A stretch of DNA of 64,000 nucleotides from Acidobacteriota bacterium (GTDB taxonomy: Bacteria > Acidobacteriota > UBA6911 > RPQK01 > JAJDTT01). Location: contig OZ253580.1 of NCBI GenBank assembly GCA_965263035.1, positions 1,792,001 to 1,856,000 on the forward strand, read 5' to 3'. The position numbers and the translations under genes were made by a program. How positions within the stretch are numbered: position 1 is the first letter of the stretch; every line of letters begins with the position of its first letter. A model generated the notes under the pieces. It did no database searches. It saw only the letters and a program-made list of their open reading frames with translations, and was not told where the DNA came from. Shown one piece after another: positions 11,214 to 29,550 of this stretch.

Positions 11214-12383
11214 TCATGCGTTCTGAAGCAACATCGCCAGCTCGGAGACGCTGATCGCCTCAACGCCTTCGGTGACCGGGAAGCGCTCGTCGCCGGAATG
11301 CGCGACGAACGCATGGGCCGGCCTCAGGTCCGCGCGGGCGTTGTGGAAGCCGCGGTCCAGTCTCGGGGCGCGGCCCCGCTTGATCTCTATCGCCCACAGT
11401 TCGCCGTTCGGCAACTGAAGCGCGAGATCGACCTCGGCGCCAGCGGAAGTGCGGTAAAAACTGGCTGTCGTCCGTTCCGGGGCGGCCGCGAGCAGATTCT
11501 CTATCACATATCCTTCCCAACTGGCGCCGGCCACAGGATGGCCGGCCAGCGCATTGAAATCGCCAATGCCGAGCAGAGCGTGCAGCAGGCCGCTGTCGCG
11601 TATGTAGATCTTCGGCGATTTCACAAGCCTTTTCCCGACATTGGCGTGAAAAGGAGCCAGGCGCCGCACCAGCAGCAGATCGGTCAAGAGTCCGATATAG
11701 CGATTCACGGTTTGCACGCTCACACCCAATGACGAAGCCAGCCGGGAGGCATTCAACAGGCCTCCCTGGCTGTGGGCCAGCATGATCCAAAGGCGTTCCA
11801 GCGTTTCCGCGGGGAGGCGGGGCCCGAACAAGGCGACGTCGCGCTCCAGGTAAGTCCGGATAAAGTCCTTGCGAAGAAGAAAGCTACGCCTTCCGTCAAC
11901 GGCCAGAAAGCTGTCCGGGAAGCCGCCCCGCACCCAGAGCCGGGTGGGCGTGTCACTACCGCCCGCCACCTCGAGGAGGTGGAACGGCTGCATGTCAATA
12001 TAGGCGATCCGGCCGGCAAGGCTCTCGCTGGACTGGCGCAACAGATCCATCGACGCGGAGCCGAGGATCAGGAATCGTCCGGTCCGTTTTCCTCGCCGCC
12101 GGCCGCTGTCGATGACCCCTCGAAGATCCTGAAACAGGCCGGGAACTCTGTGGATTTCATCGAGAATCACGAGGCGTTTTTCGTAATGGCTCAGGAACAG
12201 CGCCGGGTCGCTCAGCTTCTGCCGATCGGTTCGGTCTTCGAGGTCGAGATATAGGGCTCCGCGCTCTTCGCCGATATCCAGCGCGAGCGTCGTCTTGCCA
12301 GCTTGGCGCGGGCCGATAATGGCCACCGCTGCCTGGTAACCAAGCGCCTCAAGAACGCGGGGCTTGATGTGCCGCTCTATCAT
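11214..12383 (-). CDS. AAA+ ATPase with DUF4143 domain (AAA_14 type)
   Basis: GPRQAGKTT, ILDEIH, GGFP, KSPKIYIRDSG and C-terminal EVD...AIEIK nuclease-like motif. Confidence 0.9.
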   Translation of the reverse strand: MIERHIKPRVLEALGYQAAVAIIGPRQAGKTTLALDIGEERGALYLDLEDRTDRQKLSDPALFLSHYEKRLVILDEIHRVPGLFQDLRGVIDSGRRRGKRTGRFLILGSASMDLLRQSSESLAGRIAYIDMQPFHLLEVAGGSDTPTRLWVRGGFPDSFLAVDGRRSFLLRKDFIRTYLERDVALFGPRLPAETLERLWIMLAHSQGGLLNASRLASSLGVSVQTVNRYIGLLTDLLLVRRLAPFHANVGKRLVKSPKIYIRDSGLLHALLGIGDFNALAGHPVAGASWEGYVIENLLAAAPERTTASFYRTSAGAEVDLALQLPNGELWAIEIKRGRAPRLDRGFHNARADLRPAHAFVAHSGDERFPVTEGVEAISVSELAMLLQNA

Positions 12384-12520
12384 CCTTGTATATTATCCAT
12401 AGAATGGACAATTAACAAGGATAGAATCCACTCCGAGGAAAGAAGCCGTCTATGTATTCCACAGGAACAAGAATACCTCCGCTCGTGGGCGCGTGGGCGG
12501 GTCCGGCACGCGTTCCCGAC

Positions 12521-12631
12521 TTACCCGTCCACCTGGACGTGCTTCATGGCCTCGTGGGCCGGAGACGGCTTCCCCTGAACGTGCAGGAAGGGGTACCGGT
12601 AGTCCTCCTCCCCCACCCAGCAGAACTCGCC
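12521..12631 (-). pseudogene. Second, shorter displaced 3' fragment of the PhyH gene
   Basis: ~110 bp that match 29551-29661 and 10762-10872 with scattered substitutions. Confidence 0.8.
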
Positions 12632-12779
12632 ATTTTATCAGCGGGGCGCTCGAAGAACCCAACGTCTTCGGGACCCTGGGCCAACTGACCAGGTCGTTTT
12701 GGCGCGCCGTCACTGACAAGTGGGTAGCCAGACCGATTGTCTGGCTCCGAAACCCCGTGCTTGGGGGAAGGTTCATGCT

Positions 12780-15700
12780 TCAACCCAAGATCATTCCGTC
12801 GATGACCGATGCGATCACCGCTGCATCCAACCCCCCGCCCGGCTCGTCCCGAGTTTCGATCAGCGTTCCTTCCAGGCCTCCGCCGTCCTCGTGAGGCCGA
12901 ATTCCGCAGTCCAGGTACTCGGCACGCTTCCGCTCCCATCGGGCTCTGTACCCTTGGTCGTCGAGCATGCCGAGATGCTCCCAATAGAAGGTCACGCCCC
13001 GCGCGTGATCCGCGATCGTGAAATCCGGGTAGCGGGTGCGACCATTGGCCAGCACGAGAGGCTGCTCGTAGGCGTAGTCGATCCCGCGCGCGTAAAGCTT
13101 GTCGGCAATCACCAGCTCGGACTTTGAGCGCACGAGATCACCGCGCTCGGTTCGATGAATGAGCCCTTCCTCGAGGAAGCGCTGCTGGGCGTTGACGGTT
13201 ACTTCGCGCGGCCGCGGATCCGCGAAGAGGTTCGTCATGCGCCGGGCGATCTCCGAGTGCTCGTCGCCTGCATAGCGGCGATACTCGACAAGTGGGCCTT
13301 CGTGCAGGATGACCAGCCGGTCCTGGTGGCGGGTCAGCGCCGTGTACAAGAGCTCGCGGGAGAGCAGCCAGCAGGGGTTGGTGAGTACGACGAAGGTGAC
13401 GCCGAACTCGCTGCCCTGGGTCTTGTGCACCGTCAGGCAGTAGGCCAGCTCGAGCGGGTTGCGGCCTTCGTCTCCGAACTCGCCGGGGTAGAACCGGTAC
13501 TTGGGGCCTAGTTGCCCGGCGAACTCGACCTCGAGCTTCCACGGCATGCCCCTGAACTTCTTCGTCTTGTACTCCCCGACGATGATGCCGATGTCGCCGT
13601 TGGCGAGGTAGGCCTCCCCAGCGGGCTTCGGCCAGACGTCGCGCCCGCGCTGGTTGATGACATTGATGACCTTGTCGCCGTAGAGGAGCATCTGCGGGCC
13701 GACGGGACGCGGCACCTTGCGACCCCAGCCCTCCGCCTCGGCAAGCTCCCGCGCCTCCGCCCGGAACCGCCTTTGGAGCATGCGGTTCAGCGCGTCCACC
13801 CCCACGAGGCCGGCGCGCAGAGGCGAGAGCATCTGCCACGCTTCCGCCCGCGCGGCGGCTCCCGGGTTGTCGCCGAAGCGGTTCCAGAAGAAGGCCCACG
13901 GGATACCCCCGTGACGGGCGCCGCCCAGCGATTCCTCGAAGCCCAGTTCGTCGTCCGGCCCGGCGAGACCGAGCGCCTCGACGAGTTCCGCGACGAGCTT
14001 CTCCTGAAGCTCCTGCGGGTGGTTCCACCGCACGAGCCGGAGGCGTCCGTCTTTTCCTTCCTGTCCCTCGTCCAACACGGCGTCTGCGCCAGGATCGAGC
14101 GGCCGTCCGCTGAAGTGCGATGCCAGGAGCACGTCGGCCCGGGACTCGCCCTGCTGGCGTCGCGGGATCGTGAGCCCGGCATAGCTCGGCCCGTAGCGCG
14201 GAAAGAGCGTCTCGACATTCTCGGGCTCGAGCTCTCGAACGATGTCCACGAACGGGCGACCGGCCCCAATCGGCGGGAGCTGGCGCGGGTCCCCGACGAG
14301 CACAAGCCGCTCGACGTTGCTGAGCGAGTCGATCAGCGCCGCGAGCTGCTCTTCGGTGAGCATCGAGCACTCGTCCACGATCACGGTCCGGTAGTCGCCA
14401 CAGCGAGGCGCCCTGAGCTTGGGAAAGTAGGCGCCGGTCTCCCCGTCGTAACGTTGCTGCCGGATCAGAAACTGCGCCAGCGTCCGGCCGGCACCCCGCC
14501 TGCCGGTCTGCTCTTCCAGGCGCACACGGGCCTTGCCCGTGGGTGCCAGGAGCAGCAACCCCTTCTCGGCGAGACCGGGAAGCGAGCAGAGCATCCGCAG
14601 CAGCGTCGTCTTGCCCGTCCCGGCCGGGCCGATCAGCACGGAGAGCCGCGAGCGGAAGAGCTGCTCGAGCGCCGCCGCCTTCTCGCGCCGCGCGCGCTCC
14701 TCCAGCTCGCGCTCTTCCGGATCCGTAGGCAGCGCCTCATCGATCCCTGCGTCCACGAGCCCACGCCAGTCGAGTTCGGCCACGTGCGGCTTCCCCTTCT
14801 TCCGGCCGAGCACTTCGCGGCGGATGATCGTACGGCACTCGATGAGCCGGTCCACCTGGTAGGCAGGCTCGTCCTGACGGGTTGCCGCGCACGCGACGAC
14901 CGGCGCGAAGCTCTCCTCGCAGGCGTCGAGCACGTTCTCGCCGAGCGGGCACGGCGGCTGGAGCGCTCGCTCCCGCGCCCTGCGGATGACCCAGCTCCGA
15001 GGGAGCAGCGTGTGGCCCTCGGCCGCTGCGTGCTCCAGGAGGTCCGCGACCAGTGCACGTACACGCCGTTCGTCGGCCGGGTCTTCGATGCGGCTCGGCT
15101 CCAACACTGGGAACTGCTCCCGCACTGCCTCGTCCGGGAACAGGCCCCGGTCCACCGCGCCAAAGGCAATCGGGTCGGCGGCGCGCCGGTCGTGCTCAAA
15201 GAGGAGGTAGGGATTGCGCAGCAGCTCGGCGTCGCTAGCCTCGATGCCGGCCTGCGCCCGTGCTGTGGTGTCGTAGAAGCGTAGCGCCTGATCCTCCGAG
15301 ATGGCGCAGCGGCCGAGGAGTTGGAGCAGGGCCCGCCGCTCGTCGGTTAGGCGCTTCCAGCCCTTGCGCAGCCCGTCCGTGAGGAGCTTTGCCACGGGAC
15401 CACCAAGCTTCGCGGGATCATCCATCACGGCGTCCACGAGCGCCCACGGATCGCCGCCGCCCTCGCGCTCGCGCTCGCGCAGCAGTTCGATCTCGTACGC
15501 GAGCAGGCTCCCGTGCTGGAAGCCCCACTCGTAGCCGAACGCCGAAAGCGCCGAGCCGAGGCCGGGGAACGCACCGCGCGCCCTCCACAGGCGGTTGAGC
15601 TGCGTATCGATCCAGGCGAGCACCTCAACCCACGGTCCCTCGATCCGGCCGCGCACCCGGTGCAACGTCGCGGCGCAGGCCACGAGGGAGGCCACGGCGC

Positions 15701-16601
15701 CATCGTGGGTCAGGAGTTCCGAGCCGTAGGAGTAGGCGTCGAAGTGCTCGTCCGGGGCGAAGGCCACGAACTCCTCGGGGTCGACCCCCTCGCGTTCGGC
15801 GAGCGCCAGCGCTTCCTGGTAGGGAAAGAGGAAGCCGTCCGCGAAGCCGGGCCGGACCGAATGGCCCACGTTGCACTCCCAGAGCACGCACCGAAGCGGC
15901 GGGTTCTTGACCTTGTATGCGTATTCGGTGGCCTCGCCGACGGAGAGCACCCGGCCCACGCCGACGATCACGCGCCGGGACTGCTCGGAGAGCGGGGTGC
16001 GCTTGGCATAGAAAAAGCAGAGCGACTCCTCTGGCCGGAGCGCGCCGAAGAAGGTGTCGAGCAGAGCGAGCTGGTTCTCGCGCTCCTGGACCCAGGCCGT
16101 CTCGACCTGCTTTCCGCCGCGGCTGCGGATGTCGGGCTCGCCGTCTGGCACCCAGCGGATCTTCAGGCGCTCGGCGATCCCGATCTCACCGTTCTTTGCG
16201 TTCCCCTCGACCTTCTCGCGAAGCATCCAGCGGAACGGAACGCAGGCAGCAGAGTAGGGCGATTGCACAAAGCGGGTGGGTGCGAAGTGGCCGTGGGTCT
16301 TGGGGTAGAACTCCGTGTACGGGTGGGTCATCGTCCGGGTGAGCGAGAAGGGCGCCATGAACGAGACGCGCTCGCCCACGCAGGGTGGCAGGTCGGCGTG
16401 GTCGAGCTCGTCGAGCCGCTGACCCGCGCAACGCGCCTCCACGTCGTCGCGCCGGCCTTCGCCGATGCGGGGAAGGACGAGGCAACTCGAGTTGTCCAGC
16501 GGCCGGGCACACACCGTCCCGGACCAGCCCCCGTCGTGCCACGGGACGCGGATGGTGACATGGTGGGGCGGAAGGCGGCGGGCGCCGGCGAAGCTTGTCA
16601 T
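12780..16601 (-). CDS. RecD2-like SF1B helicase with long N-terminal region and C-terminal PD-(D/E)XK-like nuclease domain
   Basis: GPAGTGKTT, IVDECSM, LVGDPRQLPPIGAG, AYCLTVHKTQGSEF and RELLYTALTR. The tail reads RSKSE...YPDFTI...WEHLGM. ATG 16601 has a GGAGG RBS and overlaps the RT stop (ATGA). Confidence 0.88.
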   Translation of the reverse strand: MTSFAGARRLPPHHVTIRVPWHDGGWSGTVCARPLDNSSCLVLPRIGEGRRDDVEARCAGQRLDELDHADLPPCVGERVSFMAPFSLTRTMTHPYTEFYPKTHGHFAPTRFVQSPYSAACVPFRWMLREKVEGNAKNGEIGIAERLKIRWVPDGEPDIRSRGGKQVETAWVQERENQLALLDTFFGALRPEESLCFFYAKRTPLSEQSRRVIVGVGRVLSVGEATEYAYKVKNPPLRCVLWECNVGHSVRPGFADGFLFPYQEALALAEREGVDPEEFVAFAPDEHFDAYSYGSELLTHDGAVASLVACAATLHRVRGRIEGPWVEVLAWIDTQLNRLWRARGAFPGLGSALSAFGYEWGFQHGSLLAYEIELLREREREGGGDPWALVDAVMDDPAKLGGPVAKLLTDGLRKGWKRLTDERRALLQLLGRCAISEDQALRFYDTTARAQAGIEASDAELLRNPYLLFEHDRRAADPIAFGAVDRGLFPDEAVREQFPVLEPSRIEDPADERRVRALVADLLEHAAAEGHTLLPRSWVIRRARERALQPPCPLGENVLDACEESFAPVVACAATRQDEPAYQVDRLIECRTIIRREVLGRKKGKPHVAELDWRGLVDAGIDEALPTDPEERELEERARREKAAALEQLFRSRLSVLIGPAGTGKTTLLRMLCSLPGLAEKGLLLLAPTGKARVRLEEQTGRRGAGRTLAQFLIRQQRYDGETGAYFPKLRAPRCGDYRTVIVDECSMLTEEQLAALIDSLSNVERLVLVGDPRQLPPIGAGRPFVDIVRELEPENVETLFPRYGPSYAGLTIPRRQQGESRADVLLASHFSGRPLDPGADAVLDEGQEGKDGRLRLVRWNHPQELQEKLVAELVEALGLAGPDDELGFEESLGGARHGGIPWAFFWNRFGDNPGAAARAEAWQMLSPLRAGLVGVDALNRMLQRRFRAEARELAEAEGWGRKVPRPVGPQMLLYGDKVINVINQRGRDVWPKPAGEAYLANGDIGIIVGEYKTKKFRGMPWKLEVEFAGQLGPKYRFYPGEFGDEGRNPLELAYCLTVHKTQGSEFGVTFVVLTNPCWLLSRELLYTALTRHQDRLVILHEGPLVEYRRYAGDEHSEIARRMTNLFADPRPREVTVNAQQRFLEEGLIHRTERGDLVRSKSELVIADKLYARGIDYAYEQPLVLANGRTRYPDFTIADHARGVTFYWEHLGMLDDQGYRARWERKRAEYLDCGIRPHEDGGGLEGTLIETRDEPGGGLDAAVIASVIDGMILG

Positions 16602-19600
16602 AACCAACCTCCCTGCGCTGCCGTTTTCAGACCTGCGGGGGGATGCTTCCAGCCGTCGGCATTGGCTCCCGAGATGTCGTGGCGCTCCAGGAACCCGCCG
16701 ATGTCGTCGATTTCGAGGAACGTGATCGAGGCCTGCTGTCCGTGGGTGTGGAAGATCTGCCTAATGTGAGCATCGCTCCTCGGCCAGTAGGCGTTGCTGC
16801 CGCCGTACTGCCCGTTGTTGGCGACGACCACGAGTTGGAACATGTGATAGTGCAGCGCCAACGCCATCTGGTCGAACGTCTTAACGTCTTTGTTGAGCGC
16901 CGGGATCGCCAAGATATCTGACTCATCCCTGAGATCCGCAGCGAGGCCGAGATCCGTCGCATCATAGCAGACGGTCGCAGTCAGCCATAAGGGGCGGTCA
17001 CCGTCCGCGTCAGACCACGGATAGCCGATCAACCACTGGCAGGGCCGGAATCCCTGAAGAACGTGCGCCCCACCACCGTTGAACGCTTGCTCATTCGGGG
17101 CGAGGTGAGCCTTACCTTGACGGCGAGTCTTGATCTGCAGCCCGTAGGCGTCCGACCACTCCGGCATGACCCACAGGGCTGAGTTGACGAGCGGTTGCCC
17201 CGCTAGAATCTCTTCGTAGGTCAGCCCGGCGAGGATCATCGCCCTGTGAGCCCGTGCGAAAGGGACCAGATGAGTACGAACGTCCTTCGGATGGACGGCA
17301 AGCTCGGGCAGAATCAGCCAATCGAGCCGCCCTTCGCTCCCCTTGTGCGTCTCTCTCAACGCCAGCATGCGTTCCACGGCTGCGAGCGCTGCCGACAGGT
17401 GATTGCGGTGTCTTCGCCGAATTGCGGACTCGTTGAGTGCTAGGTCTGTGTGCTGCAAGTCACCGGTCGCCGGGATCGCTGTCTGGACCACGCAGGCACG
17501 CAGCGGCCTCGGCGTGTTCGTCGCTGTCGGTCGCCGGACCAGCAGCGGCAGGATCAGTGCGCGGGTAGCGCTACCTCGGCGCTGCTCGAGATCGGCGATC
17601 CTCTGGCCAATCTGCGTCCTCGCCTCTTGGATGCCCTGCTCGACCCAGCCGAACCCATCCGGAGCACGGCACCCCGGCCAGCGCAGGAGGCCCAGGAGGA
17701 GTCCTTCTACCCAGTCCGTGATCGGAAGCCAGTCGTCTCCGAAGGCCGGCTGCCCGCTATACAGGCCGTACAGGCGCTGGTACCAGTGGCTCTCGGCAGG
17801 GCGATAGAAAGACTCAGTCTCTTTCCAATGTCTCCTGCGGACGGGACGCGTGAAATCCGGCTGCCCCGACAGGATGAACCGGAGCAGAAAACCGAGTTGG
17901 AAGCGCCACCCCTCGCCGGCTTCACACCACGCGGGCACCTCGTATGGGGAGCCCGATGCGTCGGCCCGACTCCCCAGGATCCGCAGCGTTTCTACGTCAG
18001 CGACCGCCCGGTCCTCGCCGAGCTTCAGCGTGACCTGGCCTGGGGTGATCACCTCGGGCGGAAGCTTCTGCTGCTCCCACTGTTCGAGGAAAGCCCTCGC
18101 GAAGCGCAGAAGGGAGAGCTCGTTGCGAAGAGAACCGCTCGGGTGCGTATTCAGGACCGCCTTGGCCAGCGTGTCGTGGCCGCCGTCAGCCCCCTCCGGA
18201 GCCCGGCAAAGGTCCTCGCGGATGCGCGCCGGAAGGTCGTTGAAGAGAAGAGTATCCGTCGCGGTGTCGATGATCTCGAGAAGAAACGACGGGTCCCTCT
18301 GAGCGAGCTGCCGCCTCCTTGACGGACTGAGGCCGGGCCGCGTCAACTCAACCGCCCGCGCTCGATCCAAGAACGCACGTCTGGCGAGAACCGCGAGCGT
18401 CGCAAAATCCGAACTCCGGAGGCGGTCTCCGTCACCGCGCAGGAATCGGATCAGCTCCCGGTAATGCCGGGTCTCCGGTACCGTTCCCGTGCGCACGACG
18501 GGCGCCCCGACGGGATCGCAGACGGCGAGGAACAACAGCGCCTGCTGTCGTAGGTACCAAGGAATCGTCGGCCCGGGCAGGGCCACCAGGCGAGCGGCCT
18601 CCCCGCGAAGCTCCTCGCGGTAGGATTCGAGGTCGATCCCCAAGGGGAGCGATTCGGTGTCCGCCACGAGCGCCGTTTCCGTGGCTCCCGCGCGCAAGAC
18701 TTCAGCGAGGCAGTACCAAGCGACTCGCCTCGGCGCCTTTCGCCGCCCCCCCTTTTCCGTGAAAGGGCGGAGCAGTGAGAGAACTTCCCGCAACAACTCC
18801 ACATCCGGCCAGAGATCGAGGCCAATCCGAAGCAGGCGAACGTTCGATGGGTCGTCGATCCACCGTTGAATCAGACCCAGCGCAAACGCCCTCGCATCCT
18901 CGTCCAGCTCGCGCCGTGTACGCGCCACGCGCGGTCGCCCACCGGGCGGGGTATCGCCTCTACCAACCTCAGACTCGTCCGGCGTGTCGTCGTCTTGGAG
19001 CAGCGGCCTGATGGAACGGAACGTGGTTCGATATCGGGCAGCGCCGAATCTGGCGACCGTCTCGTCCCGAACGTCCGGGACCGGGGAAAACCGCCAGCCA
19101 CTGTCGTCCCCCACGCTCAGGGCTTCCTGCGCGCGCATCAGGCCCTGGATGGCATCGAGGATCTCCTCGCCGCCGAGCGCGTCGAATCCCCCCGACACCG
19201 CCGACTGGATGCGGTTCATCTTCGCGCTCTGCCGCACCAACGGTCGTTCGTCGCCCCCTAGCGCTGCGACTTGGCTCTTCTCGGGGGACAGCACGAGGCC
19301 GGTCGCATTCTCTTCCAGAACCTGACTTAGCCATCTCGAGACGGTCTTCTCAAGGTCATTCGACGAGCCATCCGACTTCGGGGCAACCGCAACCAGGATC
19401 CGCAAGTCGTCGACGTACCGGCACGAGTCCGCCACCCGGATTCCGGGGGCGATCTCCGTCCCGATCGCCACGCGCAGCACCTCGTCGAACGAAAGGAGCA
19501 CGACGTTCGCGAAGAAGCCGGAGGCGACGAGTCCCTGTGGCAATGCCACCCGCGTGAAGTCGTCCAACTCCGCCTGCTCTGCGTACATCTTGACATTTTT

Positions 19601-20356
19601 TTCGTCACGCGGATGCCAGCCCCAATTGAGCACGGACGCCGCCAGAGAAAAAAACGCCGGGTCATCGCCGTCGCGGCGGATCCGGTCGAGCGCTCCGGCA
19701 AGCAGATCCGGGCGCACGCGGTCGTAGAATTGCCGAATGTCCGCATGGACGACGTAGACGCGCTTTCCATCGGCTGCCGGAATCGACTCGGCCGCGACTT
19801 CCGGCCGGGAGAGGAACGCGCGGTAGTCCTGGTAGTAGGCGCGGTAGAGCTTGGCGGATCCCCACCGATGGCGCAGTTCGCCATATATCGCGTCGCAGAA
19901 CAGCCGGTTGCCATAGGAGACCACCTGCCTTCGCGACTCCTGATCACGTACCGGCTGTCGCGGATCCCCTTGCAGCGTCTCGACACGGTCGGCGAGACAG
20001 AGCATCAGCGCCGTCGCCACCACCTGGTCGGCCAAGCTGACGTGAGCGAGCGGTCGAAGCCGTGCCGAGCGCGCCCCCTTGACGGGCTCCCACACGCCTT
20101 CCTGCACTCGCCAGCGCTGGCTCTTGGGCGCCGGAACGATGCGTAGAGGATCGTTCTGCCAGCTCTCCAAAGACTGCAGGCGTTCGCCGAGTTCGCTGAG
20201 AAACGCCGGCAGGTTCACGGCCGCGCGGTCGAGAGCAAGCGTGTCGGAGAACCAGTTGTGGTAGCGGATGTAGGACGCGGTCTTCTTCCAGGCCTGAACG
20301 AGGACGTACTCCTCGCGGAGCAACTCCAAGCGCGGTTTGAGCTGCTCCTGAACCAT
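16598..20356 (-). CDS. Reverse transcriptase-nitrilase fusion (DRT1/UG1-like defence-associated RT)
   Basis: RT motifs RLRPL, HADIRQFYD, LPQGLVASGFFAN and RYVDD. C-terminal carbon-nitrogen hydrolase triad E (LPELAV), K (QGKAH) and C (VCYD). 1252 aa. Confidence 0.9.
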   Translation of the reverse strand: MVQEQLKPRLELLREEYVLVQAWKKTASYIRYHNWFSDTLALDRAAVNLPAFLSELGERLQSLESWQNDPLRIVPAPKSQRWRVQEGVWEPVKGARSARLRPLAHVSLADQVVATALMLCLADRVETLQGDPRQPVRDQESRRQVVSYGNRLFCDAIYGELRHRWGSAKLYRAYYQDYRAFLSRPEVAAESIPAADGKRVYVVHADIRQFYDRVRPDLLAGALDRIRRDGDDPAFFSLAASVLNWGWHPRDEKNVKMYAEQAELDDFTRVALPQGLVASGFFANVVLLSFDEVLRVAIGTEIAPGIRVADSCRYVDDLRILVAVAPKSDGSSNDLEKTVSRWLSQVLEENATGLVLSPEKSQVAALGGDERPLVRQSAKMNRIQSAVSGGFDALGGEEILDAIQGLMRAQEALSVGDDSGWRFSPVPDVRDETVARFGAARYRTTFRSIRPLLQDDDTPDESEVGRGDTPPGGRPRVARTRRELDEDARAFALGLIQRWIDDPSNVRLLRIGLDLWPDVELLREVLSLLRPFTEKGGRRKAPRRVAWYCLAEVLRAGATETALVADTESLPLGIDLESYREELRGEAARLVALPGPTIPWYLRQQALLFLAVCDPVGAPVVRTGTVPETRHYRELIRFLRGDGDRLRSSDFATLAVLARRAFLDRARAVELTRPGLSPSRRRQLAQRDPSFLLEIIDTATDTLLFNDLPARIREDLCRAPEGADGGHDTLAKAVLNTHPSGSLRNELSLLRFARAFLEQWEQQKLPPEVITPGQVTLKLGEDRAVADVETLRILGSRADASGSPYEVPAWCEAGEGWRFQLGFLLRFILSGQPDFTRPVRRRHWKETESFYRPAESHWYQRLYGLYSGQPAFGDDWLPITDWVEGLLLGLLRWPGCRAPDGFGWVEQGIQEARTQIGQRIADLEQRRGSATRALILPLLVRRPTATNTPRPLRACVVQTAIPATGDLQHTDLALNESAIRRRHRNHLSAALAAVERMLALRETHKGSEGRLDWLILPELAVHPKDVRTHLVPFARAHRAMILAGLTYEEILAGQPLVNSALWVMPEWSDAYGLQIKTRRQGKAHLAPNEQAFNGGGAHVLQGFRPCQWLIGYPWSDADGDRPLWLTATVCYDATDLGLAADLRDESDILAIPALNKDVKTFDQMALALHYHMFQLVVVANNGQYGGSNAYWPRSDAHIRQIFHTHGQQASITFLEIDDIGGFLERHDISGANADGWKHPPAGLKTAAQGGWL

Positions 20357-21675
20357 ACCTCAGCCCCCCAGCACCTCGACCAGTTCCGCGATCACCTGCA
20401 ACTGGCCTTCGTCCGCGCTGGTGAGCACGATCGGCTCGAAGTCCGGGTTGACGGGGTTGAGGGTGATCTCGACGTGACGCCAGGAGTCTCCCTCCTTCGC
20501 CTTCTTGCTCTTGTAGCGCTTGACCGTGTAGCGCTGTCCGGTCTCCGGGTCGGTGGCTTCACGAAGCTGGACGAGGACGATCTTGCCCTGGCGCGTACCC
20601 TCGACAGGACCTCGAAAGAGGCACCAGGCACCGTCGCGAATCGCGGGCTCCATGGACTTGCCGACGACCTGGGCGACGAACATGCCCTTTCGCAGACGAT
20701 GGCGGGACTTGAGAGCGACCCACTCGAAGTCGTCGTCTTCGATGTGCTGCGGATCGCTGAAGGTGCCGGCGGCCACCCTAAGCGGGATGAGCGGCACGCA
20801 GGTGACGTAACGGTCCTCGGGTGCGGGCCCGACCGTAGGCGGCCGAAACGGGACCACCTTCGCCGTCCCCTCTGATGCCGCATCCGCCTCCGACACGCCC
20901 TGGAACGCGTCGGGCCAGCCGCCATGGGCTTCGATGACCTCGTCGATCTCGGACATGATGCGGACGGTCTCATTCAGGGCGACGACGATCTTCTGGTAGT
21001 GGGCGATGTCTTCATCCGAGAGCGTGCGGCCCTTCCGGTCCTTGAGCCACTTGTGGCAGACCTGGTAGCCGCCGATTTGGAAATCCCAGACCTCCCCGGG
21101 CACACCCCTGAAACCCATCGTGCCGGGCTTCGTCGCGTGGTGCCCCTCGCGCGCAATGGTCTTGCCCGCGTCGATCCACACGGTGCCGTCCGACCAGCCC
21201 GCGCGTCCGACTTCTGGGAGCTTTGGGCCGGTGTATGTCGTGATGGGCTTACCGAGTTCCGGAGACTCGAGCAGGTGGAGGGCCAGCACGTCATGGCCGA
21301 TCTCTGCCAGCCCTCGGAAAAGGTCGACGCTTCCGGGCAGAGGTACGCGGGGGAAGTCGAACTTGAGCTGGGCCTCATAGCGGCTCCGATAGCCGGGGCT
21401 GTGGAACACCGTGTAGATGTAGGCGAAGACGTCCTCGGGGCCGAAGGTCTTCCAGAGATCGCCCCGGCCGTCGCTGACGAATCGCAGTTCGGTGGCGGCC
21501 GCAATCTGCTCGACGAACCCCGAGTCCAGATTCGGAGTGCGGCCGTCCTTGCCCTTTGTCCAGCGGTTGAATAGCGAATCGTCGGCCCTGCCGACTCCGG
21601 GATAGAGGTAGAGCGGAAAGAGTGAGTTGACGTCGTAGGCCGAGCAGGTCTTGTGCGCAATAATGCTCGATGTCG

Positions 21676-22764
21676 CTAGTGTGGTGTCCTGGAAATACGA
21701 GTAGATAATCGTGCTAGCTTGTCCAGGATGGATTGGGCTGTGGCGGCCCACACGAAGGGTTTCGCCTCTTGGTTGTATCGATGGGTGAATTCCTCAATCG
21801 TCTTCACCAAGTGTCTCACGTTGCGGAACGAGGTGCGCTTGATCGCTCGCTGTGTGATCAAACCGAACCAGCGCTCCACTTGGTTGAGCCAGGAGGCGTA
21901 GGTGGGGGTGAAGTGTAAGTGGTAGCGTGGCCGCTTGGCAATCCAGGCCCGGACCCGTGGATGCTTGTGCGTGGCATAGTTGTCGACGACCAAGTGGAGG
22001 TCCAGATCGGGCGGCACTTCCCGGTCGATCAACCTCAGAAAGGCCAGGAAGTCCTGGTGGCGGTGGCGCTTCTTGCATTGAGCGATCACGCGACCCGTGG
22101 CGGCATCCAGGGCCGCGAAAAGGGTGGTGGTGCCGTGGCGGATGTAATCGTGCGTATATCCTTGAACGTACCCGAGACCCAGGGGCAGGGCCCGTTGGGT
22201 CCGGTCCAGGGCCTGGATTTGAGACTTCTCGTCGACGCACAGCACCATGGCGTGGTCGGGGGGATGGAGGTAAAGTCCCACGATATCTCGGACCTTCTCG
22301 ATGAAGAAGGGGTCGTTGGAGAGCTTGAAGGTCTGGGCCAGATGAGGCTTGATGCCAAAAAGCGAGAACCAGCGCTGCACGGTGGTCTTGGAGACGCCCT
22401 CGGCGGCGCCCATCAAGCGCACGCTCCAGTTCTCGGCGTTGGCCGGCTTCTGCTGCAGAGCGCGGCTGATCACCTGGGCGACCTTCTCGTCGTCGTAGCT
22501 GCGGGGACGACCGGGACGAAGCTCGTCATGCAAGCCCTGAACGCCGAGTTCGAGGAAGCGTCGACGCCACTTGCCGACGGCTTGGGGCGAAGCCCCGACC
22601 CGTTCGGCCACTGCCCGGTTGGTGAGGCCCTCGGCACTGGCCAGGATCATGCGGGCTCGCAGGACCAAGCCGTGAGGCAGACTGGTGGAACGGGCGACTC
22701 CCTGGAGTTGATGTCGCTGCTCGTCGCTGAGTACCAAGGGGGGAAGTTTGCGTCCGCGGGGCAT
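21676..22764 (-). CDS. IS630-family transposase
   Basis: HTH region with RPGRP, then DDE motifs [19 protein letters not shown] and WLNQVERWF. The stop codon TAG uses the target TA. Confidence 0.95.
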
Positions 22765-22828
22765 AGGCAGTCTCCTTTCTGAATGAGGAACCGCCTATTA
22801 TTATACACGAACTAACGGGACACTACAC
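21679..22828 (-). mobile_element. IS630-family insertion sequence (1150 bp)
   Basis: Terminal IRs GTGTGGTGTCC / GGACACTACAC. TA is duplicated at 21677-78 and 22829-30 within a CTAG target. Confidence 0.93.
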
Positions 22829-25511
22829 TAGCGCGCCCCACTTATCTCTCGTCTGCCTCGTTGTGATTAGGCCGACGTTCTCCCCCGCGAGCATGTGCCG
22901 CATAATCTGCTTTACAGTTCGCCACACCAGCGAATCGTGATAGAAAATCAAGCGTTGGTCGAAGGGGCGATAGAGAACCGGCTTGATGTGTTCTCCCAAC
23001 TCCCTTTCACCTCCAATCAGTTTTCTCGCGTTGGGTATGTTCCACCCCTTCTTCAGCGGAATCCCCAGTCGGCGGCACAGTTCCTCATCAGAGTCTTTCG
23101 AATCGCGAAACTCACGTGCCCGCTCGAGCAATGGTGCTTCAGCGAAGTCAATCACTACATGGTCCCGTGCCGTCGTCATTCCAACACCATTCACCGGCAT
23201 CACTTCGGTGATTATCCAGCCCTGTTCGTATTCGGCTTTCAGTTCGGTGTCTTGCGGCACGAACAGGTAGAATGGCCGCTGTGGTCGCAGCACCATCCAT
23301 TCCGTGCTACCAGCATCGGTCGAGAGGAGCGTTTCGTACTTGCTCTCCCGCAGCTCCCACAGGTCGGCATGATGTAACTTGGCTGTGCTCCTCTTCCCCG
23401 CCTTATTTATAAAGAGTCCGAGCGCCACCCCCTGCTGGATGTCGAAGACGTTTTCATCTTTGCCTCCGTCCGGCGCGCGTTCCTGCTTCTTCGAGTTTCC
23501 GTGAAGGTCGAGCAGGAAGAGCTGATCGAACGTCGCAAGCAGTGCCCGCCGCACTCCTCGGAAAGTCGGGCTGTCAACATAGCTGTGGTTCGTGATGAAG
23601 CCATGAATGCCGGCACCAGCCCGCTCAAGTAGCCATTGTGAAAATCGCGTGAAGCGGACGTAGAGATCGTTCAGCCACTTCGGGTTGCGCTCATTCAGCG
23701 GCTCACCGTCTACCTCGAAGTAGCTCAACGTGCTTCGGCCACTCTGGAGTTCCTGACCGCGCATGAGCGCTGCGATCCAGTCCCCACCGCGACCTGCTTC
23801 GCCAAGGTACGGCGGATTCCCGATCACCACCGTGAACCGTTGATTCCGCTTGATCTCGTTGACCGCTTGGGCCTCGTGCGCCAGGGCCGGCAGGAAATCC
23901 AGGGTGAGCTGCCTACTTCCCGCCGGCTCCAGCGCGTTCGTCAGGTACACACGCGCCCGCTCGTCGCTCCCGAAGCGGTAGCCGGTCTCGTAGAGCTTGA
24001 GGCCGATCTTGAGGTGCGCGATGGCGTAGGGCGCCATTAAGAACTCGTATCCGTGCAGGCGCAACAGGAGGTGTTCCGGGACGTAGTGGTTCCAGAGCGC
24101 CTCGATCTTTTTCTCGCCGTGGCCCTGAGCCTTCCACTCCTCGACCATCGTCTTGTGGATAAGGTCGATTACCTCGACGAGGAACGTGCCGGTGCCGGTG
24201 GCGGGGTCGAGGATCTGGACGAAAGCCTGGTCGGGCGGCGTGCCGTTGGGGATCTCGAGATCTTCGTGCCGTTTCGCCATCTCGCCCCAGGTCGTTGTGT
24301 CGGCGAGGCCGTCAGTGAGGCCGAAATCGCTCCGCAAGAGCTGGTCCACCGAGCGCACGATGTAGGAGACCACCGGGCGTGGAGTGTAGAAGACGCCCCG
24401 GCTCACCTTCTGCTTCTTGTCGTAGGCGGCGAGGAAGTGCTCGTAGAAGTGGATGACCGGGTCTTCCCGGGGGTTCCGGTCGCCGAAGTCGAGGACGACG
24501 GCCTCCATATTAGCCTGGTCGAGTAGCTCCACCACCTCGGAGACGCCCAGCTCGTCGAAGTCGATGCCTAGCCCACCGGCCTTCCCGCGGCGCCCTCCCG
24601 CGTGAAGGAAGGTCTCCATCAACTCCTTCAGAAACGGGTTCGTCCGCATGTAGGCGGCGAGGTCGTCGGCTGTGCGCCGCGCCGGGTCGGTGATGCGCGC
24701 GGACAGCAGCCCGTATGCGAGGGTCTGGGCGTACATATCGGCGAAACCGTCCTCGTCCAGGTCGTGGACGAGCGCGGTCTGGAAAGCCTTCATAAGCTTG
24801 GTGAGCGGCCCGGACTCGGTCTCGATGGGGAGCGCCGTCCGGATGCGGTCGCGGATGGCGCGGGCGAGCTTCGCCAAGCGCTCCGAGAGCTGCTTTGAGG
24901 TGCTGATGACCTCGCGGTGGCGCAGTGTGAAGGCGGCGCGCCAGCGCTCGCGCCAAGCGTCGGGGTCGCCCTCGTCGTCGGGCCAGGCGAGGTGCGTGGT
25001 CAGCTCGCTAGCGACGGCGTCAAGGTGGAGCGGCGTGTCGAAGTTGTCCCAGCCGAGCACCTTGAGGGTGGGCAGGTCGTGGCCGTCCCGGGGCTTCGAG
25101 AAGTGCGCGAAGACAATGCGCCGCTCCTCGCCCTCACCGTAGTTGGAGACGAAGAGCAGGTCGTCGGCGGCCCAGGCCTGGCGCTCGGACTTGTTGGCCG
25201 AGGCGCGCTCCTTGAGCGCCACCTGGCCGAGGATGCGGCGCAGCGCCACCACGGGCAGGCGCTTCGGCTCGAACTTGACGAAGAAGATGCCCCAGGGCTG
25301 GCCCGTCGCGAGTGGGCGCAGGCGCTTGATCTCCTGGATCTTGGCCGCGTTCTTCGCGTCGATCCCGAGCTCCTCGGGGGTATAGTCGAAGGTCATTTCT
25401 TCGAAGTCGTCCGAGTCGATCGGCCAGCCGAGCTCGTCGCGGAGGTAGGCGACGAGTTGGTCGAAACGGCGGATGCATGCGAGGCGCTCCCGGTGGTTGG
25501 TCGGCATCGGT

Positions 25512-28500
25512 TCAGCCCTCGTTCAGCTCCATCCAGCAGCGAAGCCGCGGCTTGACGCCGACGGGGGCGTCCACGCGCTTCAGGTAGCTGTTCTTGATGT
25601 GCTTCTCGATCCGCTTGCGGATGTCGAGGAGCGTCTTCTCCTCCATGGTGCAGCGCCGGGGCGTCTCGGGCTTCGAGCGGATGCTCGCGACGATCTCGCC
25701 CGGCTCCTCGAGGATGGTTTCGCGGTCGAGGTCGTAGAAGTACCAGCGGGTGGTGCCGGCCTCCTCGGTGAACTCGTTCTTCTCCTTGTCGAGGGCGGGG
25801 AGCGCGTAGCAGAAGAAGACACCGCGCATGCCCTTCGCCGGGCGCTTGCGGCCGCTGAAGATCGCGCCGGGGAAGCGAGCGAGGCGCGCCTCCAGCTCGG
25901 GGTCGGCCTGGAGCAGCGCCTGGTACTCGAGATGCATGTCCTCCACGGCCGTGCGCGTGCCCTCGTAGGCGTGGTGAAACTCCTTCAGCGCCTCGTAATC
26001 GTCCTCCGGGGTGAGGAGCTTCTTGCCCTCGATGCCGAGGGTCTTGGAGATCAGGAGCGTCTTCTGCGTGACCTTCGTGTAGAGCGAGAGGATCTCGTTC
26101 AGCTCCTGAGGCGGGAGAAAGTTCCAGAACCAGACCCTGCCGCGCGAGGCGGCCGCCTCGGGATGGTCGGCGACGAGCCGCTTCTCGATTGCGGGATTCA
26201 TGCGGCGGTCCACCCGGCCGATGCGCTGCATGAGGCGCACCGGGTTCCAGTGGATGTCGTAATTGATCATCCGCGAGGCGTCCTGGAGGTTGAGACCCTC
26301 GGAGAGGACATCGGTGGAGATCAGGACGCGGGTCTCCTCGCTGCCCCGCTCGGCGAGCTCCGGGGACGAGCGGCCATTGTAGTAGGGCGCGAAGCGCTGG
26401 ATGACCTCTGAACGGTTCTTCTTCGTGGCACTGTCCACCTGCTCGACGCCCTCGATACCGGCCTCGTCCAGTTGACGCTTGAGGTAGCGGGCAGTGTCGG
26501 CGAACTCGGTGAAGATCAGAATCTTCTGGTCGGCCAGCGCCTTTGACTTGAGCAGGCGGATGAGCTTCTGGAGCTTGTCGTCGTGCTTCGGCTCGAACTT
26601 CCGGGCCTCGGCCAGGAACCGAACGATCTGGTCGAGGTCGAGGAAGGTCTCGGCCATCATCTCCTTGACGTCGTACGCGGCACGGTCGAGGCGCTCGACC
26701 GCCTCGAGCATCTCCTGGGGGACGACGTCATCATCGTCTGCCTCCTTGCCTTCCTCGCCCCAGAGCTCGAACTGGCGCTGGACGGCGCAGCCCAGGATGT
26801 CGGCGTTCTGCGCTTTCCACCTCTTGAGGCGCTTCTTCTCGGCGTCGCTCTCGCTGTGGACCTCGATGAAGGCCAGCAGCTTCTTGAGCAGGCGGTCGCA
26901 AGAGAGTTCGAAGGCGGCGACGGAACTCTCGAAGCGCTTGAGAAAGTTGGTCCGGATGAGGCCGATCACCTGTCTCTGGCGGTTCTCCTCGAACGGGTCG
27001 ATGTCCTTGTCCGGCCCCCTGTACCAAAACAGGGGGTAGTACATCGGGAGCGTGAAGAGCGGGCTCTGCTTGGCGAAAGCATTCTCGAACAGCTCGAGCA
27101 TCCGCCCGTAGGTCTTGCGGATCGAGTACGCTGCTACCTGAGGGTCCCTCCGGTCGGGAAAGGCAGCTGCTTTGCCGTACTCCCGAATCTGGCTCTCGCG
27201 GGCGTAAGCGCGGCTCCGCTGGACGACGAGCTCGCGGAAGAATGCGTCGGTGAAGAGGATCTCCTGGGCTTCGATCATGTGCTCCGCAGCATCCGCCACG
27301 TCCTGTCCCAAACGGCTGCGAAGCATCCTTTCCATCTGGCTGAAGTGCGCCCTCAGGTTGTTCACGCCGATCGTGCGCGCGAAGTAGGACTCGTCACGAC
27401 GCGTGAAGAGCTCGGTCATGTGGCGGAAGTCGCTCAGACGGTTGTTGATGGGGGTGGCCGTCAGCATGAACACGGTCTTGGGGCGTTCCGCGTTGTCGAG
27501 TAGCTCGAACAGGCGGTAGTAGCGCGACGGTTCGATTCCCCTGTCGGGATCACGCCGGCGGCCCGGATTGCGGAAGTGGTGTGCCTCGTCGATGACAACG
27601 ATGTCGGCGAGTTCCGCAATGCGCTGGAAACGCTGCGGGAAGTCCCCCTTTCGTCCGAGGTCGGTGTGGCTGAAGACGGCCAGGTTGCTGAAGTCCCCGC
27701 CACCGCCGACGCCGCCGATGTGCGGAAGCCACTGACGCAGGTGGGGCTCCCATACCCCCTCCTTGGCCCCCTTCGGTGCGAACAGCGCAACACGCTTGCC
27801 CTCGTGAAGGATGAGCCGCTCGATCAGCATCAGACCGACGAAGGTCTTGCCAAGACCCACGCCGTCACAGAGGAACGCACCGCGGTGCTGCCGGGCGATC
27901 TTCATGAGCGCCCAATACGCCTCCTTCTGATATCGATCGAGGTGCGGGAACATGCGCGACCGTGTCTCGTCCCACTCGGTCGCGGTCAGCTCGTGCCCCC
28001 GGAAGAACTGCTGCAGGGCCTTCGCGTAGACGTCGAATGGCGAATACGGGTGCGTATGGCGCGAGATCGTCTCGATGACGGCCTCGGTAACCCCGCTCGC
28101 TTCGTTCCAGTGCGTCTCGAACCACTCCTGGAGCTGCGCGACTTCGCGTGAGCTCTGGATCTGGACGTTCAACTCGATGTTCTTCGTGAGACCCGGACGC
28201 GTGAAGTTGCTGGAGCCCACCAGCGCCTGGGAACCCACTACCTCAAGCTTTGCGTGGGTGATGTAGGCCTTGGCGTGGAATTTGGCCTTGTCGTAGACAC
28301 GGCATTCGATCTTCCCGGAGCGGAGCGCGTCGAGGATCGCAGAGACCCCGTGCAGGAAGGGGTTCGGCTCCTTGTCCTCCTCGATGCTTTCGTCGAGCCT
28401 ATCGAGCGCTTGCGCCCGAACCGCTTCGAGAATGGCCTTTCGAGTCCGATGGGTGGTCTCCGCCCCCATCAGGATCCGGATCTTGTCGAGCCCCTGCCAT

Positions 28501-28661
28501 CTGCCGTCGAGGGTGAGCAGAGCGCCGATCTCGAAGTATCCGGTCGCGATGTCGAACGCCTTCGCGATGCTGGACCACTCCTCCAAGTACCGGAGCCCGG
28601 TCCAGCCGGAGACACTGTTGTCGACGATAAAGAGCTCGTGGCCCTTGGAGTCAGCGGTCAT
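25512..28661 (-). CDS. PLD-nuclease domain plus SNF2-type (SF2) helicase
   Basis: PLD motif FHAKAYI...VGSSNFT...NIELN. Helicase motifs DGVGLGKT, DEAH, LTATP, SEGLNLQ and QRIGRVDR. Start set at ATG 28661 with a GGGAG RBS. Confidence 0.9.
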   Translation of the reverse strand: MTADSKGHELFIVDNSVSGWTGLRYLEEWSSIAKAFDIATGYFEIGALLTLDGRWQGLDKIRILMGAETTHRTRKAILEAVRAQALDRLDESIEEDKEPNPFLHGVSAILDALRSGKIECRVYDKAKFHAKAYITHAKLEVVGSQALVGSSNFTRPGLTKNIELNVQIQSSREVAQLQEWFETHWNEASGVTEAVIETISRHTHPYSPFDVYAKALQQFFRGHELTATEWDETRSRMFPHLDRYQKEAYWALMKIARQHRGAFLCDGVGLGKTFVGLMLIERLILHEGKRVALFAPKGAKEGVWEPHLRQWLPHIGGVGGGGDFSNLAVFSHTDLGRKGDFPQRFQRIAELADIVVIDEAHHFRNPGRRRDPDRGIEPSRYYRLFELLDNAERPKTVFMLTATPINNRLSDFRHMTELFTRRDESYFARTIGVNNLRAHFSQMERMLRSRLGQDVADAAEHMIEAQEILFTDAFFRELVVQRSRAYARESQIREYGKAAAFPDRRDPQVAAYSIRKTYGRMLELFENAFAKQSPLFTLPMYYPLFWYRGPDKDIDPFEENRQRQVIGLIRTNFLKRFESSVAAFELSCDRLLKKLLAFIEVHSESDAEKKRLKRWKAQNADILGCAVQRQFELWGEEGKEADDDDVVPQEMLEAVERLDRAAYDVKEMMAETFLDLDQIVRFLAEARKFEPKHDDKLQKLIRLLKSKALADQKILIFTEFADTARYLKRQLDEAGIEGVEQVDSATKKNRSEVIQRFAPYYNGRSSPELAERGSEETRVLISTDVLSEGLNLQDASRMINYDIHWNPVRLMQRIGRVDRRMNPAIEKRLVADHPEAAASRGRVWFWNFLPPQELNEILSLYTKVTQKTLLISKTLGIEGKKLLTPEDDYEALKEFHHAYEGTRTAVEDMHLEYQALLQADPELEARLARFPGAIFSGRKRPAKGMRGVFFCYALPALDKEKNEFTEEAGTTRWYFYDLDRETILEEPGEIVASIRSKPETPRRCTMEEKTLLDIRKRIEKHIKNSYLKRVDAPVGVKPRLRCWMELNEG

Positions 28662-29033
28662 GATGCTCCCTGCCGGTCCGCAAAGCGCATTGCGACCATC
28701 TGCGTGCCAGCAGCGTCCTTCTTGCCCTTCAGACCCACACCGGCACGTTCGGGATCTTGCTTGATACGGACACAATTACCGGGATCGACAATCACGGCGA
28801 CATTCCGAATCAAGGTCAGTCGGTCCTCCAACGGGTTAAAGTCTCTCGTCGTTTTGTCGCCCATAAAGCAGAGTACTGTGGCTTGAAAGTTTTCACCCAG
28901 AAATTCGCAAGCAGTTGTTAAATAGGGACTTAGGAGGTATTCTCAAGCCCCGATTTTATCATAGTCATTAGGTAGTCTATCGGTACCATACAATAGATAA
29001 CAAAAGACTTACACAAAACCGAGGGCCTGAACA

Positions 29034-29366
29034 ATGGGCCGAAAACGCGAACATCAGCTTCCGCTCTCCGGGCTCTGACCCGATCACCAACTCGCCCAGG
29101 AGCTGAAAGTCGTTTCCAGGATCTTGGAGGAATATCCCTCGGTCCTGGATCCGGTCTTACACGATCTGTGTGACTCCGTTCGCTCTGGCCAGGGCGCTCC
29201 GGGTCTGTCCGCGGAGCAGGTGCCGCACTCAGCCATCCTCAAGAACTGGCATCAGCTTTCCTACACCAAAGTGGCTTTCCACTCGAGCGACTCCCAGAGT
29301 TTTCGTTGCTTCGCCCGCCTAGCCTTCGGCTGCTCCCCAAGTGCTTCCTGTCTGTCGGAGAACATC
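29034..29366 (+). pseudogene. Degenerate IS transposase N-terminus (ISNCY/IS5-like)
   Basis: MGRKREHQLPLSGL*PDHQLAQEL...GAPGLSAEQV...LSY...DSQSFRCFAR, with an internal TGA and truncation. An AT-rich IS-end-like leader lies at ~28876-29030. Confidence 0.6.
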
Positions 29367-29379
29367 CCCTACGATCGGG

Positions 29380-29509
29380 GGGGGCTGTAGGCGAGGCGCA
29401 TCTCTTGTATGGAGGGCTCGTCGGCGGGGCGGTCGGGGGCGGAATTATCGGCTATCAGTTGGGAAAGAGCCGGGACCGGGAAACCACCATCATCACGATT
29501 GTCGACTGA
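29380..29509 (+). pseudogene. 3' remnant of a third glycine-zipper membrane-protein paralog
   Basis: GGAVGGGIIGYQLGKSRDRETTIITIVD* matches the C-terminus of 5935..6510 (GHKLGKRKDRETTIIKIVD*). Confidence 0.75.
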
Positions 29510-29550
29510 CTCACCGGAATTTTTTCCGGCGCAAAGCGTGGACTCGAGGA

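Follow-up and report, generated by a model that had tools for sequence, protein, structure and literature searches.

Do four large genes that lie end to end in a bacterial genome form one defence system, or are they several systems that travel together? This question is raised by a stretch of 64,000 nucleotides from an Acidobacteriota bacterium (contig OZ253580.1; the whole stretch is called here the window), whose minus strand holds, in this order, the genes for a PLD-SNF2 helicase (HEL), a methyltransferase (MT), a reverse transcriptase fused to a nitrilase (RT) and a RecD-like protein (REC). The sequence-only reading of the locus had taken them for one undescribed four-gene defence system. 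The analysis described here favours, with a probability of about 0.6, a different interpretation: that the region is a co-transferred, probably co-transcribed bundle of three self-sufficient defence modules, namely the HEL-MT pair, RT and REC.

This interpretation is preferred because the parts also occur alone elsewhere, as was found in two samples drawn from different collections, each made of the best 80 matches, with relatives that are not independent of one another and with genes defined by the analyst's crude choice of open reading frames (ORFs). For the RT-centred sample, one genome per species was scanned with a profile built from 16 RTs, and the best 80 of 141 relatives gave 76 loci, each taken with flanks of up to 10 kb, in which partners were sought by tblastn with the window proteins. 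In the HEL-centred sample, a HEL profile was run against metagenome contigs, and the best 80 of at least 606 relatives gave 62 loci. RT turned out not to be tied to its neighbours in the window: 36 of the 58 RT loci with both flanks held no trace of HEL, MT, REC or S24 (the C-terminal Peptidase_S24 domain of MT), and other RTs have DISARM-like, type III, MmeI-type or Hma/MANTIS-type genes next to them. HEL and MT are not tied to RT either, as none of the 23 HEL-centred loci with at least 5 kb downstream carried RT behind HEL, and full-length REC homologues were found alone on plasmids. Nor does RT need the other parts, since DRT1, the group to which it belongs, defends E. coli as a single gene, according to the available portion of PMC13275509. 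Each of the findings that the sequence-only reading had named beforehand as speaking against it was made, and its claim of one four-gene system is unsupported.

The four genes, and the insertion that splits one of them, are the following.

25512-28661, minus strand: HEL, first gene of the operon; PLD nuclease (single HKD-type motif) plus SNF2/SF2 translocase, 1049 amino acids (aa)
22823-25507, minus strand: N-terminal piece of MT, an 894-aa ORF; adaptor-like domain, N6-adenine methyltransferase and first third of the Type ISP target-recognition domain
21679-22828, minus strand: IS630-family insertion sequence (IS) that splits MT; transposase at 21676-22764
20360-21678, minus strand: C-terminal piece of MT; remainder of the Type ISP recognition domain and S24 tail (20363-20851)
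16598-20356, minus strand: RT-nitrilase, DRT1/UG1 member, 1252 aa, intact
12780-16601, minus strand: REC, PDC-S68-type, 1273 aa, intact

Several statements of the sequence-only reading stood up well. Direct inspection of the sequence confirmed the co-orientation of the genes and their junctions, namely a 4-nt gap between HEL and MT (TGA ACCG ATG), a 3-nt gap between MT and RT (TGA GGT ATG) and an ATGA overlap of RT and REC, and matches in Pfam, PADLOC and the Protein Data Bank (PDB) bore out the domain identities (PLD-SNF2, N6-adenine methyltransferase, RT-nitrilase, RecD-like). The operon-like packing was also confirmed, and the arrangement exceeds what chance would give, as the same order with equally tight junctions is present in other genomes. 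A scan for promoters and terminators gave nothing at the gene junctions, such sites being no more frequent than in shuffled sequence.

Parts of known kinds

RT can be assigned to DRT1/UG1, a class 3 group of UG/Abi reverse transcriptases with a nitrilase, on the basis of an end-to-end match to the PADLOC model Drt1a (PDLC03745; E=0, 1243 bits, profile positions 3-1176 of 1176), a match in two stretches to the PDB entry 9yfd, 'Defense-associated reverse transcriptase 1' (E 7.7e-118), and a Pfam RVT_1 domain. Its catalytic motif is CRYVDD, in which Y314-D317 is aligned to the YVDD of the reference and is invariant in 16 sequences, as are the nitrilase residues E1018, K1082 and C1130, aligned to the reference segments ELAVHP, QGK and CYDATD, the last of which holds the reference C1116. 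The motif WK[YH]PPAG, corresponding to the lid of the reference, occurs in the window as in almost all 63 RT tails aligned. The priming serine is placed less neatly: HMMER sets G390 opposite the reference S402, and an invariant S388 lies two columns off, in a gapped loop. The small membrane gene drt1b is absent from the locus, as had been stated from the sequence, and only 33 of 175 UG1 members have one, according to the available portion of the survey of UG/Abi reverse transcriptases (Mestre 2022). The locus is like most DRT1 loci in this respect, and it shares with DRT1 the full-length Drt1a and 9yfd matches, the YVDD, the nitrilase Glu-Lys-Cys and the WKxPPAG lid; it differs in that RT is translationally coupled to an upstream restriction-type methyltransferase and a downstream PDC-S68 gene.

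What a DRT1 enzyme does has been described for a homologue, and the available portion of that work (PMC13275509) reports the following. The enzyme makes protein-primed, untemplated short DNA adducts on a serine. It assembles into tetramers and into dormant filaments, and a C-terminal lid (residues K1219 and A1223 of the reference) covers the nitrilase, for whose cysteine mutant data are given. Abortive infection requires RT as well as nitrilase, and Dda of T4, an SF1B helicase, is necessary, not sufficient, for triggering, the activation pathway being called elusive.

Taken together, HEL and MT resemble a Type ISP restriction-modification enzyme that is divided between two genes and has a PLD nuclease. 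The start codon of HEL, an ATG at 28661, matches the N-termini of its homologues, and Pfam finds in the protein PLDc_2 (residues 60-185), Helicase_C, ResIII and SNF2-rel; the PADLOC model C3a139, 'HKD+Snf2', is matched with E 8e-58, and H129/K131, G149-S-S-N152 and D358-E-A-H361 are invariant in 11 homologues. As for MT, its N-terminal piece contains N6_Mtase, Eco57I and profile positions 1-124 of Type_ISP_C, with the motifs DPATGTG and NPPY and a match to PADLOC REase_MTase_IIG (E 4e-159), preceded by an adaptor-like domain of ~190 aa, and its C-terminal piece takes up Type_ISP_C at positions 127-341. Relatives of MT on plasmids bear the NCBI name 'type ISP restriction/modification enzyme'.

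The interruption of MT is due to an element of 1150 bp with terminal inverted repeats, flanked by a TA duplication (22829-22830 and 21677-21678), whose transposase shows DDE_3 and HTH_23/32 in Pfam. When MT is read across the TA its frame is restored to ~1330 aa, and intact relatives measure 1305-1341 aa. Four full copies of the element in the genome are 100% identical, one is split and one is partial at 87%; since the full copies are identical, the insertion in MT is judged recent. Further sites of this active element in the same genome lie on contig C1 at 988233, 4595256 and 5192205. Because the IS splits the recognition domain, it would disable both methylation and targeting, so that the restriction module is presumably dead in this genome and the break tolerated. 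The IS may also dampen transcription of RT and REC. No contig from the sequencing runs, which come from mixed strains, spanned the IS site, and the pieces recovered from RNA libraries are 90-95% relatives that may be DNA.

HEL is paired with a methyltransferase in most of the HEL-centred sample. Where HEL is complete and followed by 600 nt or more, as in 44 of these loci, the next gene encodes in 42 a separate methyltransferase with the common N-domain. The methyltransferases that follow HEL also include other bodies, Eco57I plus TaqI_C or else DUF7008, which have in common with the MT of the window only the N-terminal ~190 aa. As this is the only part common to such varied partners, the N-terminal domain probably serves to couple HEL and the methyltransferase.

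Two known systems resemble this pair. The pair is like enzymes of the LlaGI/LlaBIII type (Type ISP) in joining a methyltransferase and Type_ISP_C to an SF2 translocase and a nuclease. Type ISP enzymes have an Mrr nuclease domain in a single polypeptide; here the nuclease is PLD-type, HEL and MT are two genes 4 nt apart, and MT has an extra N-terminal adaptor-like domain and the S24 tail. Cleavage by Type ISP enzymes takes place, according to the available portion of PMC7049714, when translocating enzymes converge. A second resemblance is to class 1 DISARM, with its SNF2 helicase, PLD nuclease and large N6-adenine methyltransferase, and partial matches to the DrmD, DrmC and DrmMI models were obtained. 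The DISARM core consists of DrmA and DrmB (DUF1998/MZB), and in the proteins of the unit Pfam and PADLOC found no MZB domain, no best match to DrmA and no DrmB/DUF1998. HEL, moreover, scores 138.9 bits against NCBIfam DrmD, far under the equivalog cut-off of 610, and 152 bits against NCBIfam phospholipD_antiphage, below a cut-off of 1100. MANTIS/Gao_RL and the BREX survey were considered as a match for the set and set aside, as the available portions of these sources describe other gene sets.

The tail of MT had gone unnoticed in the sequence-only reading. Its last 163 aa (20363-20851) are a Peptidase_S24 domain (Pfam, E 9e-10) in which, in tail numbering, a putative scissile Ala28-Gly29, Ser66 and Lys111 reproduce the Ala-Gly, Ser, Lys order of LexA and UmuD. 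Across 18 aligned tails A27, A28, S66 and K111 are invariant, G29 is replaced by Ser in two, and the AAG site and the GKSMEP and TVKR motifs are kept. Such tails are a general add-on of restriction-type enzymes. A profile of the tail matched 2304 cluster representatives at E <=1e-3 and 411 at 1e-30, and a domain scan of 114 of the best 150 (those of at least 190 aa and within the size limit) found restriction- or defence-type domains in 44, a helix-turn-helix (HTH) in 4, and S24 alone or nothing in 66. The partners were Type_ISP_C (12), other methyltransferases (3), PLD (2), HsdR-type (5), HsdS (2), MZB helicases (4), Schlafen-type (9), McrBC (1), LlaJI (1), HNH (2), RE_endonuc (1) and ResIII (2); the S24-tailed methyltransferases comprise Type ISP, Eco57I and MmeI types, the MZB helicases are MZB/YprA, and the Schlafen-type carriers are helicases too. 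Since it is found on so many kinds of restriction enzyme, the tail is probably a damage- or RecA/SOS-responsive switch of restriction, by analogy with LexA and UmuD. S24-tailed restriction enzymes were not found described in the literature searched, which left out supplementary tables; the available portions of Mestre 2022 (no mention of S24, SNF2 or RecD) and of PMC13275509 (no mention of S24, peptidase or LexA) likewise come without theirs.

Could the tail instead be an accessory specific to RT? In the RT-centred sample it ends directly upstream of RT in 14 loci. Its carriers there are window-type MT, in L017 another methyltransferase of Eco57I type, in L053 a DruE/YprA-like helicase and in L070 a short ORF; L076 has it further downstream, on a helicase of 2117 aa. 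It is present in two of the 23 HEL-centred loci that extend 5 kb or more downstream. Window-type MTs show an association (RT and tail both present in 11, RT only in 2, tail only in 2, neither in 19; Fisher 1.8e-5), in which RT presence changes only 3 times on the MT tree, and a test of independent pairs, with 2-3 pairs, has no power. Identity of the tail correlates better with that of RT (Spearman 0.73, n=15) than with that of its own carrier protein (0.64, n=11). In a phylum sample of 401 genomes from the phylum of the window, 26 genomes carry the tail, at 34 sites in all, and a Drt1a gene adjoins it in a single case, that of the window. On this count, and given a large family on many restriction-type proteins, a role specific to RT was rejected. 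The idea that the PPAG at the C-terminus of RT is the substrate of the S24 protease was discarded too: all of UG1 shares the motif, whether a tail is present or not, and it corresponds to the published nitrilase lid. A second match to the S24 tail was found in the same genome (G000:C1:483582-484061, E 4e-74), in a 736-aa open frame far from RT.

REC, finally, matches the PADLOC model PDC-S68 (PDLC05065), a single-gene candidate, over its whole length (E=0, 1522 bits, positions 5-1218 of 1221). It has AAA_30 and UvrD_C_2 in Pfam and an SF1B core, similar in the PDB to RecD2 (3e1s, E 3e-23), RecD and Dda (3upu, E 1.6e-7). Its C-terminus weakly resembles a restriction endonuclease: in a predicted model of the last 184 aa, with pLDDT >80 over residues 60-184, all top Foldseek matches were PD-(D/E)xK nucleases, all weak, with Bax1 as the best (E 2e-3) and R2 endonuclease, DrdV, Hjc, Vsr and TnsA among the others, and the conserved motifs KSE, PDF and WEH..K are consistent with a PD-(D/E)xK fold. 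For the first ~630 aa, Pfam gave no match, ESM Atlas returned only unnamed clusters and the model reached a pLDDT of 45. The term 'PDC-S68' was not found in the literature searched, and the family is a candidate defence gene.

The independence of REC is seen on plasmids. A tblastn search of 72,556 of them found REC relatives in 25 records, all below 60% identity, of which 22 had at least 80% cover and 27-52% identity; RT relatives were found in 6 records, with no accession in common. In each of the three plasmid contexts inspected (Rhizobium, Bacillus, Vibrio), the gene stands alone behind an upstream spacer of its own. In the phylum sample the PDC-S68 model matches 45 genomes, in only two of which, that of the window and G381, is the protein full-length; besides these there is one fragment, and the others match the helicase core only. 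The present locus differs from PDC-S68 as a single-gene candidate in that REC is operonic with DRT1, here and in 12 of 65 RT loci.

Recurrence of the cassette and the case for a possible cooperation

The combination recurs in several phyla, a point that the sequence-only reading had proposed to check. All four genes are present in 7 of the 58 RT loci with both flanks (L005, in which MT is truncated, L010, L012, L020, L055, L062 and L064), and also in L034, which has a short flank and a disrupted RT. Complete HEL and MT lie upstream of RT in 9 of the 62 loci with at least 7.3 kb on that side, and any trace of HEL, MT or S24 in 17; on the downstream side, for which 65 loci offer 3.9 kb or more, a full REC stands directly behind RT in 12 and a remnant of it in 5 others. 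By their record titles, the carriers include Binatia, Vicinamibacterales, Gamma- and Alphaproteobacteria, Nitrospira and Woeseiaceae.

In a tree of RTs with 66 rows, a single clade of 41 rows contains the various states of the cassette, in scattered positions. Six loci keep an intact RT next to deletion remnants (L001, L008, L011, L014, L033 and L068), which consist of a HEL fragment in L011 and of REC fragments in L001, L014, L033 and L068; because of such remnants, many lone RTs of this clade are taken to descend from the cassette. Insertions break it in L014, L034 and L062, an IS630-like gene interrupting RT in the first of these.

Elsewhere RT keeps quite different company, as was seen when selected neighbours were annotated (26 upstream proteins, and 33 more upstream or downstream, chosen by size and adjacency). 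It lies directly 3' of a DruE-like/DpdE-DrmD/DrmMI set, with a 4-nt overlap, in L058; of DrmD and DrmMI in L076, so that true DISARM-like sets flank RT homologues in these two loci; of a type III restriction-modification pair in L057; of HmaC, Gao_RL/MANTIS type, in L042 and L072; of an MmeI-type enzyme in L071; and of an MkoA-like helicase in L045. In L023 and L025 its neighbours are housekeeping genes. The frame itself also accepts other genes, which supports a shuffling of modules: a PDC-S02/YhcG-type PD-(D/E)xK nuclease gene stands between HEL and MT in L055 (4936-6066) and L083 (3801-4919), and in L085 the A and C genes of PDC-M28 (8807-12026) occupy the place of RT, between an S24-tailed MT and REC.

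REC has a history of its own. A tree of 17 rows contains two RT-linked lineages, with a lone REC from a Rhizobium plasmid as sister to one of them, and the second lineage follows RTs from different subclades of the RT tree. Two REC lineages spread across RT subclades imply that the modules were exchanged and that the layout of RT followed by REC was kept or re-made.

Several of these observations weigh against a bundle of independent modules. A partner trace accompanies 20 of the 33 RTs at least 60% identical to that of the window, as compared with 2 of 25 below that value, one of the two (L058) being a 4% fragment taken as a generic helicase motif. The HEL-MT-RT-REC order persists across several phyla and in carriers as diverged as L020 (RT 64%, REC 48% identity) and L055 (RT 72%, REC 49%), and in relatives the junctions measure 3-5 nt between MT and RT and from -14 to +83 nt (mostly -4 to +19) between RT and REC, so that the cassette is more compact and more ancient than the usual neighbours in an island. 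The adjacency of RT with two different REC lineages hints at selection for the pairing. Furthermore, as DRT1 requires a phage SF1B helicase, Dda, an SF1B gene that overlaps the stop codon of RT is suggestive. Lastly, that the HEL-MT pair and PDC-S68 are defensive at all is something we infer.

These points would fit an integrated, layered system in which RT and REC form a pair, REC either remodelling DRT1 adducts as Dda does or loading on single-stranded DNA made by RT to reach its target, while their response is fed or gated by the upstream restriction module through its S24 switch. The ATGA overlap, kept as a junction of -4 to +19 nt in most relatives, speaks for such a pair, as do REC in 12 of 65 loci plus five remnants and from two lineages, an SF1B core of the Dda and RecD2 kind, and the phylum sample, where Drt1a is found in four genomes and both full-length PDC-S68 genes lie directly behind it. 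It is nevertheless a doubtful alternative, which we entertain only tentatively, as RT is found intact without REC and REC without RT, the S24 tail is general and not bound to RT, and RT also lies behind unrelated restriction-type operons. A more specific form of it, in which RT and PDC-S68 would be a two-gene DRT1 variant, with REC supplying a Dda-like helicase activity in cis or using the adducts as a loading platform, and the restriction pair an SOS-gated first layer of an integrated three-layer system, is considered rather unlikely.

The repeat-bounded unit

How the four genes reached this genome can be deduced from their borders, for which the following features are relevant.

12522-12633, no strand assigned: copy of a PhyH 3' end, 112 bp, ~90% identity; left border of the four-gene unit
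29551-30351, minus strand: intact PhyH-family dioxygenase gene (Pfam PhyH, E 1e-44), the insertion target; its 3' end, 29552-29663, is the right-hand repeat
11214-12383, minus strand: PDC-S01-type ATPase (AAA_14 and DUF4143), outside the four-gene operon

The four genes and a leader of 890 bp make up a single unit of 16.9 kb (12634-29551), and, because it is bounded by the repeated 3' end of the target gene, the four genes are concluded to have arrived together. The unit is absent from all four genomes of the same genus, where the flanks are contiguous. Altogether the window has three copies of this PhyH end, with ~90% identity: 10763-11137 (375 bp), 12522-12633 (112 bp) and 29552-29926, the last inside the intact gene. 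Between the first two lies a separate small unit that holds the PDC-S01 gene, 396 bp away from REC. From this arrangement of repeats, the PDC-S01 unit and the four-gene unit appear to have been inserted successively at the same PhyH gene end. No integrase and no tRNA were found in the region, and Rfam gave 0 matches in 10500-30500.

Two stretches next to the genes deserve a word. An ORF of 108 aa behind REC (12450-12776) was rejected as a gene: its GC content at third codon positions is 0.60, as against 0.74-0.88 in real genes, it is without homologue in any locus, and it overlaps the repeat of the target gene. Upstream of HEL, a repeated element of ~480 bp (28888-29366) that has no Rfam match is found in 1-4 copies, at 73-84% identity, elsewhere in the four genomes of the same genus.

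A target struck repeatedly suggests a further explanation, namely that islands accrete at one site and that the set and the order of the genes are incidental and unselected. A mere defence hotspot is what the sequence-only reading had foreseen should its four-gene system fail, and part of this expectation holds: the same gene end was hit at least twice, and different defence genes occupy the same relative positions elsewhere. What does not fit a loose hotspot is that the four genes came as one repeat-bounded unit, that the same order with near-zero spacing is found in 7 of 58 loci, in several phyla and at the deep divergence given above, and that, as the deletion remnants show, many lone RTs descend from the cassette. 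Incidental neighbourhood is thus regarded as improbable, and a co-selected bundle is a fair description of the cassette. This recurrent bundle is new; its parts are of known kinds.

Proposed working of the bundle and its meaning

If the bundle consists of three self-sufficient modules, these would act in layers while each could dispense with the others. In the first module, MT with its recognition domain would read an asymmetric site and methylate an adenine, its N-terminal domain of ~190 aa would recruit the PLD-SNF2 protein, and HEL would translocate on unmodified DNA and then cut it, with the S24 tail acting as a LexA-like, self-cleaving switch. In the second, by extrapolation from the homologue described in the available portion of PMC13275509, DRT1 adducts would hold the nitrilase effector in dormant filaments until phage factors, among them an SF1B helicase, release it, whereupon the infection aborts. 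In the third, PDC-S68, an SF1B helicase with a nuclease-like C-terminus, may unwind and degrade phage DNA. The modules would be linked because linkage helps their joint transfer and joint expression.

The consequences differ with the interpretation. If RT and REC formed a two-gene DRT1 variant, the range of DRT1 would be widened to phages that lack Dda, and, if the two cooperate, they would offer a handle on what, besides an SF1B helicase, releases the dormant DRT1 filament. Apart from this, the LexA-like tail, which many restriction and defence enzymes carry, offers a lead of its own and points to a damage-responsive control of restriction. If, as is preferred here, the modules are independent, the locus would be a clear case of the bundling of defences into a translationally coupled, repeat-bounded unit that crosses phyla and decays piecewise.

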